From positions 1 through 33,109 of the IMG/VR virus record IMGVR_UViG_3300020045_001853: 33,109 bases of DNA; one strand, 5' to 3'. A model generated the notes under the pieces. The model did not search any database. It was not told the DNA's origin and saw only the letters and a program-made list of their open reading frames with translations. The position numbers and the translations under genes were made by a program. This DNA comes from a virus (Duplodnaviria; Caudoviricetes). Shown in pieces: positions 16,443 to 31,179 of this stretch. How positions within the stretch are numbered: the first letter of the stretch is position 1; each line of letters opens with the position of its first letter.

Positions 16443-17270
16443 TTACGTGCCGTGTCTATCGGTGTAACCTGCGCCTTGGAGGTTCAGTAAACGGATTTGT
16501 TCTTTGCGCCATTCATATGCCAGCTTAAACGCAGGAAGTAACCCGTGTTTATTTATAGAGTAAGTTTTAACTTTTATCTTACCGTTGTCGGACCATGCTG
16601 CTTGGCAATAGTTATAGTGTCCAGCAACTGAGAAATATATACCTGTCTTACCTGACACATTATCTGTTCGTATCTTTTTATTCTTGGTATTGTCATGTTG
16701 ACTACAAAGTTTTAAATTCTCCACCCTGTTGTCTAAACTGTCACCATTCAAATGGTCAATTACTAAGGACTTATCAGGATAGACTCCATACACTAAAAAC
16801 CAAACAACCCGTGAAACAACATAGAGTACTTTATCTATCTTACATACGACATTTGTATAACCATTAGAAGTGCTACTTCCTCCAGCCTCGTCTCCTGCTC
16901 TGGCACTTATATGGGAATACTTTCTACCGCTATACCTATTAACTTTCCAGCGTATACCTGTTGAGGAAGTTGGATCATATTCTACATACTTTAAAATTGA
17001 CTCAGTGTTAACCTTAAGATTACCTGTCTTAGAATTGACAAGTTGATCCTTGAGTTTCTCAATTAGTTCAAACTCTTTATCTAACGCTTCATTATTACTT
17101 AGATTACCTATTAGTATTTCACTATACCATACCTTGTCTTTTGCATAAGCCTTCCAGCTTTTTGGACGTTGAAATCTGCTCTTGTATCGTTTATCACACC
17201 CTTTGCCTATGTAAAATAGTGTTCCATCTTCAAGGTAATGTCCGTAGACATAGTACTTCTTTTCTTCCAT
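16443..17270 (-). CDS. Free-standing homing endonuclease: GIY-YIG domain + HNH domain + AP2-like DNA-binding domain
   Basis: YYVYGH...FYIGKG..KR...E...LVN (GIY-YIG), IDHLNGDSLDNRVENL (HNH) and SGKTGIY...AAW..KTYSINKHG (AP2-like). AT-rich insertion between capsid and neck genes. Confidence 0.82.
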   Translation of the reverse strand: MEEKKYYVYGHYLEDGTLFYIGKGCDKRYKSRFQRPKSWKAYAKDKVWYSEILIGNLSNNEALDKEFELIEKLKDQLVNSKTGNLKVNTESILKYVEYDPTSSTGIRWKVNRYSGRKYSHISARAGDEAGGSSTSNGYTNVVCKIDKVLYVVSRVVWFLVYGVYPDKSLVIDHLNGDSLDNRVENLKLCSQHDNTKNKKIRTDNVSGKTGIYFSVAGHYNYCQAAWSDNGKIKVKTYSINKHGLLPAFKLAYEWRKEQIRLLNLQGAGYTDRHGT

Positions 17271-17355
17271 TATTTCTCCCGAAATTCCACTAAAATAAAT
17301 AAGCAGGATGGTGGATAGTCATCTTTTCGGGGATCAGCCTAGCTTATCTGTTATT
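17271..17355 (-). promoter_or_regulatory. Putative structured RNA leader, copy A (three-way junction plus pseudoknot)
   Basis: GATAAGC-TAGG-CTGATCC-CC-GAAAA-GATG-ACTATCCAC-CATC-CT-GCTTATT; the loop TCCAC is complementary to downstream GTGGA. Same architecture as 28297-28378. Confidence 0.6.
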
Positions 17356-17400
17356 ATACACTATAACATAAGGTACTCCTTGTGAGAATACCCTACAGTA

Positions 17401-17421
17401 TAAAGCCTTAGTTAAAAGGCT
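17401..17421 (-). terminator. Possible terminator hairpin after the capsid gene
   Basis: AGCCTT-ttaact-AAGGCT followed by a short T run. A second hairpin lies at about 17371-17394. Confidence 0.4.
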
Positions 17422-17428
17422 AGTTTAC

Positions 17429-18445
17429 TTAGTTGGAGCTGAACAAACGCACAACAGCTTGAGGACGTTTTAAGACATTGATGAATGAGCTTGAGGACTC
17501 GATTTCAATCTTGTCGTTGCGTTGAGATTTGTACATCCAGACGTATGCCTCTTCAGCAATAGTTCCGATGGTGTCAAATTTCTCACTTGGTGTAAATACA
17601 GTCTCGAAGCTGTCAGATGTACCTTCAGCAACCAAATACGCATCGCCAGCAGGGATAAAACGGCCACCATTGTACCCGCCCCGTACCTCTAAATATAAAA
17701 TACCTCCATGTTGAAAGGATTGGTACTTACCTGAACGGAAGCCATTGCGCAGGGGCTCCTGAGTACTTGCGTAATATTGGTATGCAGTGACGATCTTCGC
17801 CTGAACCACCAGTTTAGCAAAGAATTCTGGAGAACAGAAAGCGGTAAAGTTCGTGATGACTTCACCAGACTGGATTGTATCCTGAATAGCAGCAACACCT
17901 TCTTGCACGATCTTGTTCACTTCAGTGGTAGCAGTGCTCAAGAGCAAATCCTTCTCAACACGAGCAATGCCCATATCGGTGTAGAAATTAGCTGATTGCG
18001 TACCATTTGGCGAGAATTGCTGGCCGGTGGTGAGTGTATACCAACGTGCAGTCTCAAGGGTAGCTGCATGTGCGCGGCGGATCATCTTGAGTTTATCTGC
18101 AATAGCCAAGGCTTCAGTATCCAACTGATCTGCAGTACCGAAGCGGCGCTTACCAACCAATTCGTGAGCAAACAAAGCGTCATCGAGTGGGTGGAATGTG
18201 CTTGAGTACGTTAGCATCTTGCCCAATTCACCCTTGTTAACAAAGTGACGAGTACCGCGATGTGCATCAGGGATAACACTGATAACACCACCTTTGGACT
18301 CGAACTGAACGGTATTCTGAGAGATGTACTTGCTAGTGAATAGACCTTTTTCGTTCAATAGACCGTACTCGTTAGGGTACAGCATCAACTCACTGGTATA
18401 CTCTACCACAGCTTGAGGGTTTGTAAAATCGCGTGCGATAGTCAT
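17429..18445 (-). CDS. Major capsid protein (lambda gpE-like, HK97 fold)
   Basis: 338 aa. PNEYGLL..GLF, HAATLE, FQHGGILYLE and RPQAVVRL features. Follows the decoration protein. Confidence 0.9.
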   Translation of the reverse strand: MTIARDFTNPQAVVEYTSELMLYPNEYGLLNEKGLFTSKYISQNTVQFESKGGVISVIPDAHRGTRHFVNKGELGKMLTYSSTFHPLDDALFAHELVGKRRFGTADQLDTEALAIADKLKMIRRAHAATLETARWYTLTTGQQFSPNGTQSANFYTDMGIARVEKDLLLSTATTEVNKIVQEGVAAIQDTIQSGEVITNFTAFCSPEFFAKLVVQAKIVTAYQYYASTQEPLRNGFRSGKYQSFQHGGILYLEVRGGYNGGRFIPAGDAYLVAEGTSDSFETVFTPSEKFDTIGTIAEEAYVWMYKSQRNDKIEIESSSSFINVLKRPQAVVRLFSSN

Positions 18446-25474: not shown

Positions 25475-26584
25475 TTAGCTGAACTCCCCCTGTATAAACA
25501 TTGGAGCATCGCCTATAGGTAGTACCGGTTGGGAAAAACCGAGGTTAGAATATGAGTTTGACTGGTGTAGATCAGGCAGGGTGAAGGAGGGTAACTCGTT
25601 AGTCTTATTCAAGTACCAGAATGCAGAAACTGCAGCATCAAGCGCATCATCGTGAGTTTTACCGTCGCCTTGGAAGGATTCAAGTTCATTGAAGAACCAT
25701 TCGTTCCAATCATCAGATAACACATCTAAATACCCTGCTTGAGCAATGGATGCTAAGGGTCTAAAACGAATCAGCTTACTCTTGGTGCTTAATGGTTGAA
25801 GTACACAGTGTCTACCACGTTCCGCTAACTGACGTTGTAATCCAGAAGCATAAGCCTTGCCTGCAGCACCCGGATCAATCGGCAGTACGTAAGTAATACT
25901 CGCCGGATCACTCTCGTGCATATCGAATATCCACTGCTCAACAGTATGGAATCTCTCCCGGATTCTTTCAGCACTCTCTACAGTGTATCTAGATTCCTTG
26001 GATTTACTCAAAAGAACTGTAGCACTATAATCTGGGTCTTTGTTAACCTCATCGACGAGTGAACCTGCCATGTCAAACCCGCGAACCTTACGTGTCATAT
26101 ATGGAATATCGTAAACTAATTTACTCCAAGCACGTTGGTAGAATCCGCTACTTTGTTCACGTACCCATGCACCGTAGAGTAACCTGCGTGATTCCACAGG
26201 AGGTAGTGCTTTTAGAGTAGAGATATACCCTTCATTTTGCAGTAATCCGATTGGATTATCGTAGATGCTGCCCGGGATATAGGTATAGGACTTGATCGGA
26301 TTCTCTTTACCCTTACCATGTATTTCTTGAGCTTCTTCTACACTATCGTAGAAATTAACACCAGATGCGTCCTTAACAAAGAACCTCTCTTTATACACTT
26401 CTTGTCTGATAGGTACAAGATTCTCATCAAGCATGTGCTTAACGAAAGGCATCAAGAATGAATCTGGGTCTGGATTGCATGTAGCATGAGACTGTAGAGG
26501 ATAATTTACACGAGTAGAGCGTAATCGTGATAGAGCATAAAATACATTATCCCCGTCTAACTGCTGGGCCTCATCGAAAGCTAT
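25475..26584 (-). CDS. terL: Terminase large subunit, exon 2 (Walker B through nuclease domain)
   Basis: IAFDEA Walker B, ATCNPD coupling motif, RGFDMA and HDDALDA RNase H-like nuclease motifs. Confidence 0.9.
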   Translation of the reverse strand: MAFDEAQQLDGDNVFYALSRLRSTRVNYPLQSHATCNPDPDSFLMPFVKHMLDENLVPIRQEVYKERFFVKDASGVNFYDSVEEAQEIHGKGKENPIKSYTYIPGSIYDNPIGLLQNEGYISTLKALPPVESRRLLYGAWVREQSSGFYQRAWSKLVYDIPYMTRKVRGFDMAGSLVDEVNKDPDYSATVLLSKSKESRYTVESAERIRERFHTVEQWIFDMHESDPASITYVLPIDPGAAGKAYASGLQRQLAERGRHCVLQPLSTKSKLIRFRPLASIAQAGYLDVLSDDWNEWFFNELESFQGDGKTHDDALDAAVSAFWYLNKTNELPSFTLPDLHQSNSYSNLGFSQPVLPIGDAPMFIQGEFS

Positions 26585-26831
26585 CATTTATATTCGCTAT
26601 AACTCGTTGGGTTATAACCGCTGTTAAGCTGCTGTATATCCCTATACAGATTAGACTATATCACGCTCCACTAAGGAACCTTCCTATTTCGAGCCACTTA
26701 GCTCTACTCCCTCTCGGGATAGTCGTTGCACGTTCCTACATAGTAGGCTTCGCTCAGGATTGTCTGTTCTAGAGTTTCCCTGAATTAAAGAAGTTATTCA
26801 ATCTGTATTACTACAAAAGGCCGCAAACTTT
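26585..26831 (-). mobile_element. Group I self-splicing intron (IA2-like, 247 nt, no internal ORF)
   Basis: P1 CCGU/GCGG with a U-G pair at the splice site; P AATTCAGGGAA, Q AATCCTGAGC, R GTGCAACGACTA, S TGATATAGTC; P7.1 TCCC-GAGA-GGGA, P7.2 GAGCT-AAGT-GGCTC; GNRA loops on P2 and P9; terminal G. Splicing restores QGREYSR|IAFDE. Confidence 0.93.
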
Positions 26832-27200
26832 ACGGGAATATTCTCGACCTTGTAAATTCATTCGGTCGGCTGGTTTATCTAAGTATGTGAATTGAAGTTC
26901 AGCACCAGATGAGAATACAATAGTTAAGTCCCTACTTTTTATTTTAATCTTAGGATCAATTTTAGAGTATAGATTAACTGCTGCATCAAATAAGCCGCCT
27001 GAGCCAGATAACATCTTAGTGGTCTTACGAATAATAACCGCACGGGTGCCGGGGTCATGAATAATTGGTAACATACTACCAAGTAAACACATACTCTTTC
27101 CAGCGAATGCAGCCCCCCCATACACGGTTAGGAAACTAGAACTCAGTAAAAATTGACTCTGGGGTTTTGATGCTGGACTAAATACAATATTACTATCCAT
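26832..27200 (-). CDS. terL: Terminase large subunit, exon 1 (Q motif, Walker A); spliced product 492 aa
   Basis: SKPQSQFL, YGGAAFAGKS Walker A and LQGREYS. SD AAGGAG. Confidence 0.9.
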
Positions 27201-28296
27201 TATTCTCCTTTAGAATGTTATTTAATGCTTGAACTAAGTCTTCTTGAATATCGGTGTTGTAACACTCAGTAAATCCATTGTACTTATGATACTTCTTCAT
27301 AGTCTTTGCATTAATTCTAAACCGCTTGAACTCAGAGTGCAATTTCTTTTCTATGTGCAAAGCAGCTAGACCAGTAATGACATCCATAGAGAACAATGTA
27401 TCAACCACTGAACCTTTTGGTAAACCGTAGCTACTACTCCTAATATCAATGTCTTTTGCATAACCTAGTTTTAACCAACTAAATTCAGGTGATGTTATTT
27501 TTAATAAATAGACTTTACTTGGCTTTGTATAGTGAGTATCACCACAATCTGTACAAGTCCAACTGCCATGCCTGACATGATCCATGCGTATGTCTTTATT
27601 ATGTCCACATTCCATTATGTAATTTCGTTTAATATCCGGTCTATCTGTAGCTGCCCCGTTGTAAATGAGCCCTACAGCAGATGCTTCACTCTTGTATTTA
27701 TCAACAACACAGTCTTGGCATACAACAGCACCTCTACCTACGCAAGCAGCATTAACATCACGTTTATGTCCGCACGAGTTAAACAAATAGTGTCTAAACA
27801 CACCCTTATTGTGGAGTGCAGCACCCAGATAAGTCATATCTATTTTCTCAGCATCAGCTACCAGTTTCTCCTCGTAGCATACAATACAAGATTGACCTGA
27901 ATCTTCTCCACTGTTGCGTTTAATTCGTTTACCTACGGCTTGTACGCGGAGTTTCAGAATATGACCACACGCTCCTCGTCTATACAAACGGTAGTCACTG
28001 TCATCAGTTAACGACACAAATGTAAAACCTGAGTTATTGCCTCTTGCAGAGTAATCAGCATCTAAGCAGATTGTACATCGTACACTATTCCTGCGAATGT
28101 GCGTCGGCTGAAGGTCACAAATATAGCCACATGTAATACACATGTACTGTTTATAATTTGCGTCGCCGTTAGTAGAAACTCCAAGGAGCAACATACTTGC
28201 TTTGCAACCCTCTCTGAAATGCTTATGCACTATAGAATTAGGAAGTAACTCAGTAAATAAGCTACCTGTAGTTTTCAATCTTTTATAGTTATCCAT
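27193..28296 (-). CDS. Free-standing putative homing endonuclease: four Zn-ribbon repeats + C-terminal GIY-YIG-like (T5orf172-type) domain
   Basis: Four CG(Y/H)...CxxC repeats, then KVYLLKI...LKLGYA....R...E..LH...GFTECY. AT-rich, inserted between terS and terL, overlapping the terL start by 8 nt. Confidence 0.72.
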   Translation of the reverse strand: MDNYKRLKTTGSLFTELLPNSIVHKHFREGCKASMLLLGVSTNGDANYKQYMCITCGYICDLQPTHIRRNSVRCTICLDADYSARGNNSGFTFVSLTDDSDYRLYRRGACGHILKLRVQAVGKRIKRNSGEDSGQSCIVCYEEKLVADAEKIDMTYLGAALHNKGVFRHYLFNSCGHKRDVNAACVGRGAVVCQDCVVDKYKSEASAVGLIYNGAATDRPDIKRNYIMECGHNKDIRMDHVRHGSWTCTDCGDTHYTKPSKVYLLKITSPEFSWLKLGYAKDIDIRSSSYGLPKGSVVDTLFSMDVITGLAALHIEKKLHSEFKRFRINAKTMKKYHKYNGFTECYNTDIQEDLVQALNNILKENNG

Positions 28297-28378
28297 ATTT
28301 CCCTATTAATACACCTCTAAGAATAACAAGGAAATGAGCGAGGGAACTCACTTGTCGGATGCCTCCTATCCTGTTATA
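28297..28378 (-). promoter_or_regulatory. Putative structured RNA leader, copy B
   Basis: ATAACAGGA-TAGG-AGGCAT-CC-GACAA-GTGAG-TTCCCTCG-CTCAT-T-TCCTTGTTAT; the loop CCTC pairs with downstream GAGG, and TTCCCT pairs with AGGGAA next to the ATG. Confidence 0.6.
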
Positions 28379-28767: not shown

Positions 28768-28841
28768 TGGTGCCCCGTGAATGAATCAAACATTCATCTA
28801 ACGCTTACAAGGCGTTTGTTCTGTCATTAAACTAACAGGGC
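28768..28841 (-). tRNA. tRNA-Thr(UGU)
   Basis: GCCCTGT/ACGGGGC acceptor stem, AACGC-CT TGT AA-GCGTT anticodon arm, GAATG/CATTC T stem, encoded CCA. Confidence 0.88.
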
Positions 28842-30630: not shown

Positions 30631-31179
30631 TTAAGCACTCACCAAATACCTATTCAGCAGAACAGTGGAATTAATCACGAGCATTCTATGGAAGTTCTTA
30701 GCTGCTGTAATATCATGAAAGCTCTGATGTGTGCTGAACCCACCTTGCTTGAACCTAACCTTGTAGGAATAAACCTCAGTAGCATGTGGGATTAGCTTAG
30801 CGTAGCCCTTAAGATTCTGCAAAGCATCTCTGATCTTCGTGTATTCGAGCTTAGTTACAGCACCGAGGTTATACCCACGTAAATCCTCCTCGTTTAAATT
30901 CTTGAAGTACACAACGTGTTCTGGTGGTAGCTCTTTACCGTTCAACATCTCCCATGCTAGTATTGCTCCTTTTCTATTAGTGTTCTTACCAGTCAGTGTA
31001 GACCAGCAAGGAACCCGCATAGAATCGTCCAGAGGTAATTCCCTAGTGGTAGCCTTGGTCTTACGGTCAATGCGCCAGAAGGTGCCATTCAAGAGGTCGT
31101 AGGCTATGTTAGGGAAGGTTGAACTGTAGAGGAGCTTAGGTTGGGTGCAATTGATGTTAGTGTCTTGGGTAGAATTCAT
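30631..31179 (-). CDS. Degenerate HNH/AP2-like protein (likely nuclease-dead)
   Basis: ILAWEMLNGKELPPEHVVYFKNLNEEDLRGYNL aligns by eye to the HNH_3 pattern but lacks the catalytic His and Asn. AP2-like C-terminus. Confidence 0.55.
   Translation of the reverse strand: MNSTQDTNINCTQPKLLYSSTFPNIAYDLLNGTFWRIDRKTKATTRELPLDDSMRVPCWSTLTGKNTNRKGAILAWEMLNGKELPPEHVVYFKNLNEEDLRGYNLGAVTKLEYTKIRDALQNLKGYAKLIPHATEVYSYKVRFKQGGFSTHQSFHDITAAKNFHRMLVINSTVLLNRYLVSA

Follow-up and report, generated by a model that had tools for sequence, protein, structure and literature searches.

C4 of phages P1 and P7 and CI of phage P4 are small antisense RNAs that act in trans. Another RNA, int-alpA (RF02996 in Rfam, where it is typed as 'Gene; sRNA'), is reportedly one of 224 candidate RNAs of a single published survey. 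Literature searches returned no functional study of int-alpA, whose name turned up in the excerpts retrieved as a row of an Rfam table or in an unrelated sense; the accession RF02996 gave no literature match, and a search for the motif together with endonucleases yielded nothing relevant. A term search of the main text of PMC5737381 did not find 'alpA'; the anatomy that we describe beyond the Rfam model may overlap with int-alpA proposals in the supplement of that paper. On T4-type homing endonuclease genes (I-TevI, I-TevII, I-TevIII, segB and mobE of Aeh1), RNA hairpins sequester the Shine-Dalgarno sequence (SD) (PMC2988022), and a pseudoknot in the 5' UTR of Salmonella timP activates translation and is disrupted by a separate antisense RNA (PMC11295053).

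The window, as we call the whole stretch of DNA analysed, is a 33 kb fragment (33,109 nt) from a virus record. Its capsid protein is nearest, among annotated phages, to those of Limnohabitans phage DC31 (48%) and Curvibacter phage P26059A (44%). An earlier note on this DNA had described two structured leaders, here copies A and B. Both lie where it had placed them, on the minus strand before the genes of a 275-aa and a 367-aa nuclease, and helix P1, UAGG..CC, GA(A/C)AA, the G-started hairpin, P1' and the complements of the loop, GUGG(A) in copy A and GAGG in copy B, are all found in the sequence. The surrounding genes and signals are as follows.

17429-18445: major capsid gene, upstream of the promoter and leader A
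17404..17421, scored on the plus strand: terminator-like hairpin 3' of the major capsid gene, upstream of the promoter and leader A
16443..17270, minus strand: 275-aa HNH/AP2 free-standing endonuclease gene, flanked by the major capsid gene and a head-completion-type gene
27193..28296, minus strand: 367-aa zinc-ribbon/T5orf172 (GIY-YIG-like) endonuclease-type gene, flanked by the terminase small- and large-subunit genes
30631..31179, minus strand: HNH_3-like gene without a leader, an internal negative

Three nuclease-like ORFs are found among the roughly 35 genes of the window. The 275-aa protein matches Pfam HNH_3 (E 5e-11), and the 367-aa protein matches phrog_681 (E 4e-12) and, below the cut-off, a T5orf172/GIY-YIG-like Pfam family (E 0.003). 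The HNH_3-like protein (28.2 bits) lacks, by inspection, the usual catalytic His/Asn of the motif, shows 87% identity to locus L001 over 39 covered residues, and may be a DNA-binding derivative. As the earlier note held, no leader precedes its gene: across the window, our family model, R1, detects just copies A and B (E values 1e-9 and 8e-6; both belong to its training set), the next match having an E value of 1.1. A group I intron without an internal ORF (RF00028, 67.5 bits; 26632-26841, minus strand) interrupts the terminase large-subunit gene, whose two parts (ORFs 26811-27200 and 25475-26587) lie directly downstream of the leader-B nuclease. A tRNA gene (61.9 bits; 28771-28841, minus strand) immediately precedes the terminase small-subunit-like gene, and DC31 has five tRNA genes at the matching position.

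Leader A comprises a three-way junction, complements of its loop L3 and a hairpin over the SD.

17388-17360, minus strand: second promoter candidate, TTCTCA-17-TATAGT
17353..17358, minus strand: TATAAT, from its sequence the likely -10 box of leader A's own promoter
17297..17349, minus strand: three-way junction core (RF02996, 26.9 bits; R1, 42.5 bits; covariation)
17349-17342/17304-17297, minus strand: helix P1, then UA
17339-17338/17330-17329, minus strand: helix P2, its loop L2 holding a GAUC palindrome at 17335-17332
17328-17324, minus strand: GAAAA junction
17323-17320/17310-17307, minus strand: helix P3 with loop L3 at 17319-17311; CU follows P3
17331-17325 with 17284-17278, minus strand: 7-bp alternative helix onto the SD, private to copy A
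17286..17290, minus strand: site 1 (decoy), a 5-bp complement of L3
17272..17285, minus strand: hairpin P4 over the SD, GGGAG at 17280-17276
17279-17277, minus strand: site 2, only 3 bp

Leader B has the same core, with a different junction variant.

28323..28377, minus strand: three-way junction core (RF02996, 30.1 bits; R1, 28.7 bits), GACAA junction variant
28346-28339, minus strand: loop L3
28314..28317, minus strand: site 1, a 4-bp complement of L3 (5 bp in locus L002)
28299..28304, minus strand: site 2, a complement of L3 overlapping the SD

The two copies are imperfect examples of the anatomy that their homologues display. The sequence of copy A does contain the CCCGAAA/UUUCGGG helix noted previously; as a family trait it was ruled out, since only 3 of 87 homologues have such a helix of at least 6 bp. 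In P26059A, the orthologue of leader A carries U for C in the loop and, matching it, A for G in site 1, and a blastn search with leader A against annotated phages gave no match. Evidence for a promoter of copy A is weak, because two promoter-like sites compare with 1.0 in shuffled sequence. The core of copy B starts 6 nt past the stop of the terminase small-subunit-like gene, and no sigma-70 promoter was found for it. The CCUC/GAGG pairing described for copy B is present with 4 bp, but L3 has its longer match in AGGGA(A), with 5-6 bp over the SD; in L001, which is near-identical to copy B, the duplex energies of sites 2 and 1 are -7.3 and -4.7 kcal/mol. The proposed common start of the leaders, AUAACAG, did not survive analysis. 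The window contains it five times, where 7.0 occurrences would be expected, and the 83 homologues chosen without regard to it all lack it. Nor does its register agree between the copies: in A it reaches from the -10 box into the outer end of P1, and in B it forms the 5' strand of P1.

The earlier note could not assign the leaders to a named family. In fact, both align over the whole int-alpA model (positions 1-71) with a complete P1-P2-P3 junction, and RF02996 is the top match in both local Rfam scans (E 5.5e-4 for A and 8.3e-5 for B, for 171 bases). The scores of 26.9 and 30.1 bits do not reach the gathering cut-off of 35.8, and for this reason we call the copies int-alpA-like rather than formal members. 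Orthologous leaders score 34.1 and 34.9, and 18 of 20 homologues match the model, 10 of the 20 above the cut-off. All of the junction letters UAG, CGAAAAG and CU are matched in copy A, while copy B has GACAA with a U in the opposite linker, a variant present in 22 of 87 homologues. Neither copy was recovered by an Rfam scan of the whole window or by a genome search with RF02996; these misses are a filter and threshold effect, local scans having recovered both. The leaders are a real feature and a divergent form of a catalogued RNA, and the RNA itself is not new. No integrase or AlpA is found among 78 directly downstream ORFs, a criterion taken from the family name only.

Taken singly, the copies fold no better than shuffled sequences (z -0.6 for A and -1.15 for B), and the case for the leaders therefore rests on homologues. 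The minimum-energy folds of both are SD-occluding alternatives and not the junction (-15.1 vs -9.2 kcal/mol in A and -19.7 vs -14.5 kcal/mol in B, by nearest-neighbour energies with the pseudoknot term omitted).

A pattern derived from both copies found six stretches in viral contigs, five of them real; two of the real ones come from unrelated phages and have a quite different loop and downstream complement. A TATAAT-anchored pattern gave 121 stretches, from 17 of the 64 parts of the collection. Of 101 distinct loci chosen by primary sequence only, 73 passed the stem rule (P1 plus P3), compared with 27 (maximum 38) when tails were swapped and 5 (maximum 11) when they were shuffled. The rule also fails real homologues: 15 failed loci have E < 0.01 with R1, L145 among them being doubtful. 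Matches to the pattern without the promoter were mostly chance, 18 of 120 passing the stem rule and 5 of these being judged false by eye. These five stay in the statistics on L3 complements, paired sites, P4 and downstream genes; together with L112 they are excluded from alignment A1 and from the 4/13 promoter count below. Removal of 10 near-duplicates from 97 passing loci left a non-redundant set of 87 loci, with the core as its sole definition. By record title, their hosts belong to several phyla (Planctomycetota, Acidobacteriota, Bacillota, Pseudomonadota and others); the L059 leader has no match in E. coli genomes. Two leader variants (L250, 11097-11165; L286, about 1185-1270) have a flipped P2 closing pair (C-G) and a GACG tetraloop. 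Because such variants escaped the TAG-anchored patterns, the family is wider than our sample.

Across an alignment of 78 rows, 88% of the cells pair, and double-change cells number 205 against 70 in shuffles, a count that leans upward because rows were chosen partly on pairing; slid controls were all far lower. RNAalifold on a MAFFT alignment recovers P1 only, since the variable lengths of P3 misalign. Further homologues with covarying stems, by which the earlier note had proposed to check its claim, do exist.

That note also described a single loop pseudoknot. The pairing of the loop with downstream sequence holds, being kept with different letters, but a second complement of the loop had been overlooked; it overlaps the SD and therefore points to translational control. 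Over the 87 loci, the best and second-best complements of L3 (Watson-Crick, non-overlapping, within 45 nt downstream) have mean lengths of 5.39 and 4.39 bp. The corresponding values are 3.64 (maximum 3.93) and 3.02 (maximum 3.22) bp when loops are permuted among loci (1000 permutations), and 3.38 and 2.82 bp in upstream sequence; 102 chance pattern matches show a marginal excess only (4.33 vs 4.08, maximum 4.37). No start codon could be called in 7 of the 87 loci. Two sites of at least 4 bp, at median positions -27 and -13 from the AUG, are present in 63 of the remaining 80 and missing in 17. The SD is overlapped by 53 of the 63 second sites and by 2 of the 63 first sites. The mean duplex energies of sites 1 and 2 are -6.9 and -6.7 kcal/mol, and in 62 of 63 loci the sites have at least three loop bases in common, showing that the two pairings are mutually exclusive. 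Site 2 lies inside P4 in 58 of 63 loci, with on average 81% of its bases unpaired, and P4 is more stable than its shuffles in 57 of 63; predicted folds keep P1 and P3 in only 33 of the 63 homologous leaders.

We consider it probable that this divergent int-alpA-type junction RNA, located at the 5' end of a message, is a translational brake or switch acting in cis on the gene behind it. As the variable loop matches both a decoy and the ribosome-binding site of the gene, the leader likely limits the amount of protein. Site 1, being transcribed first, would be the first to pair with L3 and form the pseudoknot, leaving the SD covered only by the weak P4 and the message translatable. A shift of L3 to site 2 would give a kissing complex that locks the SD, the near-equal energies of the two pairings being what a switch would need, and the net outcome of the exchange would be damping. 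Folding time, RNA concentration or a ligand might tip the balance. In copy A, where site 2 appears to have decayed, the lock would come from the CCCGAAA/UUUCGGG helix instead.

The direction of this control, a brake as opposed to an enhancer, is one that we infer. The L3-site 1 pseudoknot could instead be a translational enhancer or a ribosome standby for 30S entry at the P4-covered start, as in Salmonella timP, with site 2 secondary. The site 1 match is the longer one in 27 of 63 loci (equal in 22, shorter in 14), copy A retains site 1 with site 2 nearly lost, and activating pseudoknots are documented in toxin leaders (PMC11295053). However, an enhancer would not require those loop bases to have another complement, and site 2 is kept far above chance and reaches beyond the SD in many loci; we regard this explanation as unlikely.

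The junction itself offers a further candidate for what sets the exchange. Whether the junction reads GAAAA or GACAA goes along with whether the opposite linker has C or another base (61:4 vs 6:16, p 2e-9 over the 87 loci with kinship ignored), a possible tertiary covariation. In a riboswitch-like or protein-binding element, a ligand of the UA/GAAAA/CU junction (a small molecule, an ion or a host protein) would decide between site 1 and site 2. Such an element would fit the conservation of the junction bases across hosts of several phyla, the GA(A/C)AA change that follows the opposite linker, and two isoenergetic states as are typical of expression platforms. Yet the invariance is partly built in, the junction letters having been fixed in both search patterns; the variant with a flipped P2 closing pair exists, the conserved adenines may be purely structural, and the downstream genes have no common metabolic theme. 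We therefore hold a ligand-controlled element to be improbable.

A simple brake alone leaves both the near-invariant junction bases and the palindromic loop L2 unaccounted for. Palindromes of at least 4 nt occur in L2 in 49 of 87 loci, compared with 16.6 (maximum 28) in shuffles, and by distinct loop in 14 of 33 against 5.7, with differing letters; no excess was seen among the 102 chance pattern matches. In the window, copy A has GAUC and copy B only a GC pair. The unexplained palindrome motivates a dimer reading, in which messages would kiss through L2 and each L3 would leave its own decoy to lock the SD of its partner. The RNA would then be a sensor of mRNA concentration, a special case of the brake; we put this forward tentatively, as a doubtful extension. 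If it holds, translation of nucleases, replication initiators and antirepressors would be capped as phage copy number or read-through of the capsid operon rises, by a protein-free, self-sensing translational feedback that needs no protein regulator.

Many homologues carry what appears to be their own promoter. In the TATAAT-selected set, the -10 box mostly ends 4-6 nt before P1 (39 of 65), and a -10-like hexamer is found in 4 of 13 homologues not selected on one, compared with 7 of 102 chance matches (Fisher p 0.02). A search of sequencing runs with L059 gave mostly runs that carried only a small share of it, 4 of 24 being aligned. Two raw runs contain RNA reads, mainly on the strand that usually denotes sense RNA, from an allele related to L059; this expressed allele matches locus L266, has an altered junction and comes from another phage than that of the window. 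Upstream of the leader, depth is about 2-10; over the leader it climbs to 61 and 46, and 69 and 48 reads carry on into the next ORF. The 5' parts clipped from 27 and 16 reads, with medians of 13 and 12 nt and a consensus of up to 22 letters, extend no further than roughly the start predicted from the -10 box. These data support the view that the leader is the 5' part of an mRNA in one homologue.

The same data bear on whether termination or processing frees a short RNA from the leader that acts in trans on site 2, in the manner of C4 and CI. The -10 box directly 5' of P1 in many homologues, the presence of antirepressor and replication-initiator genes among the targets, the sRNA type given in Rfam and the U-enriched linker after P1' (3.2 per 8 nt vs 2.1) would all suit such an RNA. 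On the other hand, a run of four U after P1' is present in only 16 of 87 loci, by which an intrinsic terminator at this point is ruled out as a general feature. The homologue reads enter the ORF, and no pile-up of read ends is listed in the two runs, whose libraries may lose 60-nt RNAs; nor did Rfam scans of the window, both leaders and 20 homologues match a C4 family. A trans-acting product is thus very unlikely in our estimation. The earlier note had also listed a small ribozyme or processing site, which would trim the nuclease message, and nothing was found in support of either. The compact junction with conserved unpaired bases, the hammerhead-like CGAAA and the location at a cistron boundary recall such an element, but in the same Rfam scans no model of a small self-cleaving ribozyme (hammerhead, twister, pistol, hatchet or HDV-like) matches, and the sequence has no hammerhead CUGANGA core. 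A ribozyme would not need a variable loop that tracks the ribosome-binding site, and the reads of the homologue show no end pile-up, leaving self-cleavage or processing highly improbable.

The leader was described earlier as travelling with endonucleases. Related phages bear out that its presence tracks nuclease insertions, whereas specificity for endonucleases does not stand, as these account for 39 of 78 downstream genes. At four insertion sites, leader and nuclease are mostly both present or both absent. The site 3' of the capsid gene has both in the window, L005, G002 and P26059A, and neither in DC31. The site between the terminase genes has both in the window, L001, L002 and P26059A (here read across the end and start of the record, with a protein 28% identical to the 367-aa one), and neither in DC31, which has a 10-nt gap there. 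Between the protease and scaffold genes, G002 has both, the window (16-nt gap) and G001 have neither, and P26059A has a nuclease without a leader; in the tail region, P26059A has both and the window neither. P26059A carries three copies of the leader. Related-locus searches with the 275-aa HNH protein and with the capsid protein found none, and the search with the 367-aa protein found one locus.

Leaders are far better conserved than their cargo, as judged from pairwise identities. Between L005 and the window, the leader is 96% identical, the capsid protein 41% and the HNH protein 32%, and in L002 a B-type leader precedes a nuclease of 31% identity. A 177-nt terminator-promoter-leader stretch is 96% identical between L005 (1415-1590) and the window (17441-17265), which suggests that modules may have been exchanged on both sides of this cassette. 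The 78 downstream ORFs, tabulated as the earlier note had proposed, comprise 39 endonuclease-type genes, 8 replication initiators, 2 antirepressor/KilA-N genes, 5 others and 24 without assignment, many of the last being 80-aa fragments. Seventeen loci with a letter-identical P3 hairpin have seven kinds of short ORF downstream, and eight representatives of these ORFs have no nuclease match. In related prophage-like contigs (L262-L278), seven kinds of short ORF without nuclease matches occupy the place behind one promoter-leader slot, and this slot reads as a moron-like exchange site. The leader also stands 5' of an IS605 OrfB/TnpB-type gene (L106), an intein-bearing terminase-like gene (L020) and a DNA methyltransferase-like gene (L047). 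Because the downstream genes are mixed, the leader is best seen as a promoter-leader cassette of general use, of which nucleases are frequent but not exclusive users. Promoter, leader and ribosome-binding site would form a portable cassette carried in by inserted nuclease genes, with swappable cargo.

The int-alpA-type leader appears to be a promoter-leader cassette that is spread widely, across many phyla, among phages and prophages, and the decoy, the SD-overlapping second site, P4 and the self-complementary L2 give int-alpA a concrete, testable mechanism. If the brake is real, homing endonuclease genes could sit in strongly expressed head and terminase operons without overproduction.

With int-alpA the leaders share the three-way junction and the UAG/CGAAAAG/CU core, and close homologues pass its cut-off; the 71-position Rfam model differs in being without the L3 pairing, the second site and P4. 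C4 and CI are likewise small multi-stem leader RNAs with a loop complementary to repeated targets near a ribosome-binding site, and antirepressor genes lie downstream in some loci of both types, but the leaders described here have one targeting loop rather than two and show no sign of a released short RNA. The timP leader, likened here by description, no homology being seen, is similar in being structured, in having its SD covered and in switching translation through a long-range pairing of a loop; there a separate antisense RNA is involved, and none is known here (PMC11295053). The T4-type endonuclease hairpins also place an RNA structure over the ribosome-binding site of a homing endonuclease gene with a dedicated promoter adjoining, but they consist of one hairpin each, whose effect is lifted by a late promoter within it (PMC2988022). 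The leaders of the window differ from them in having a conserved junction upstream, a loop with two alternative targets, and a promoter that precedes the whole structure.
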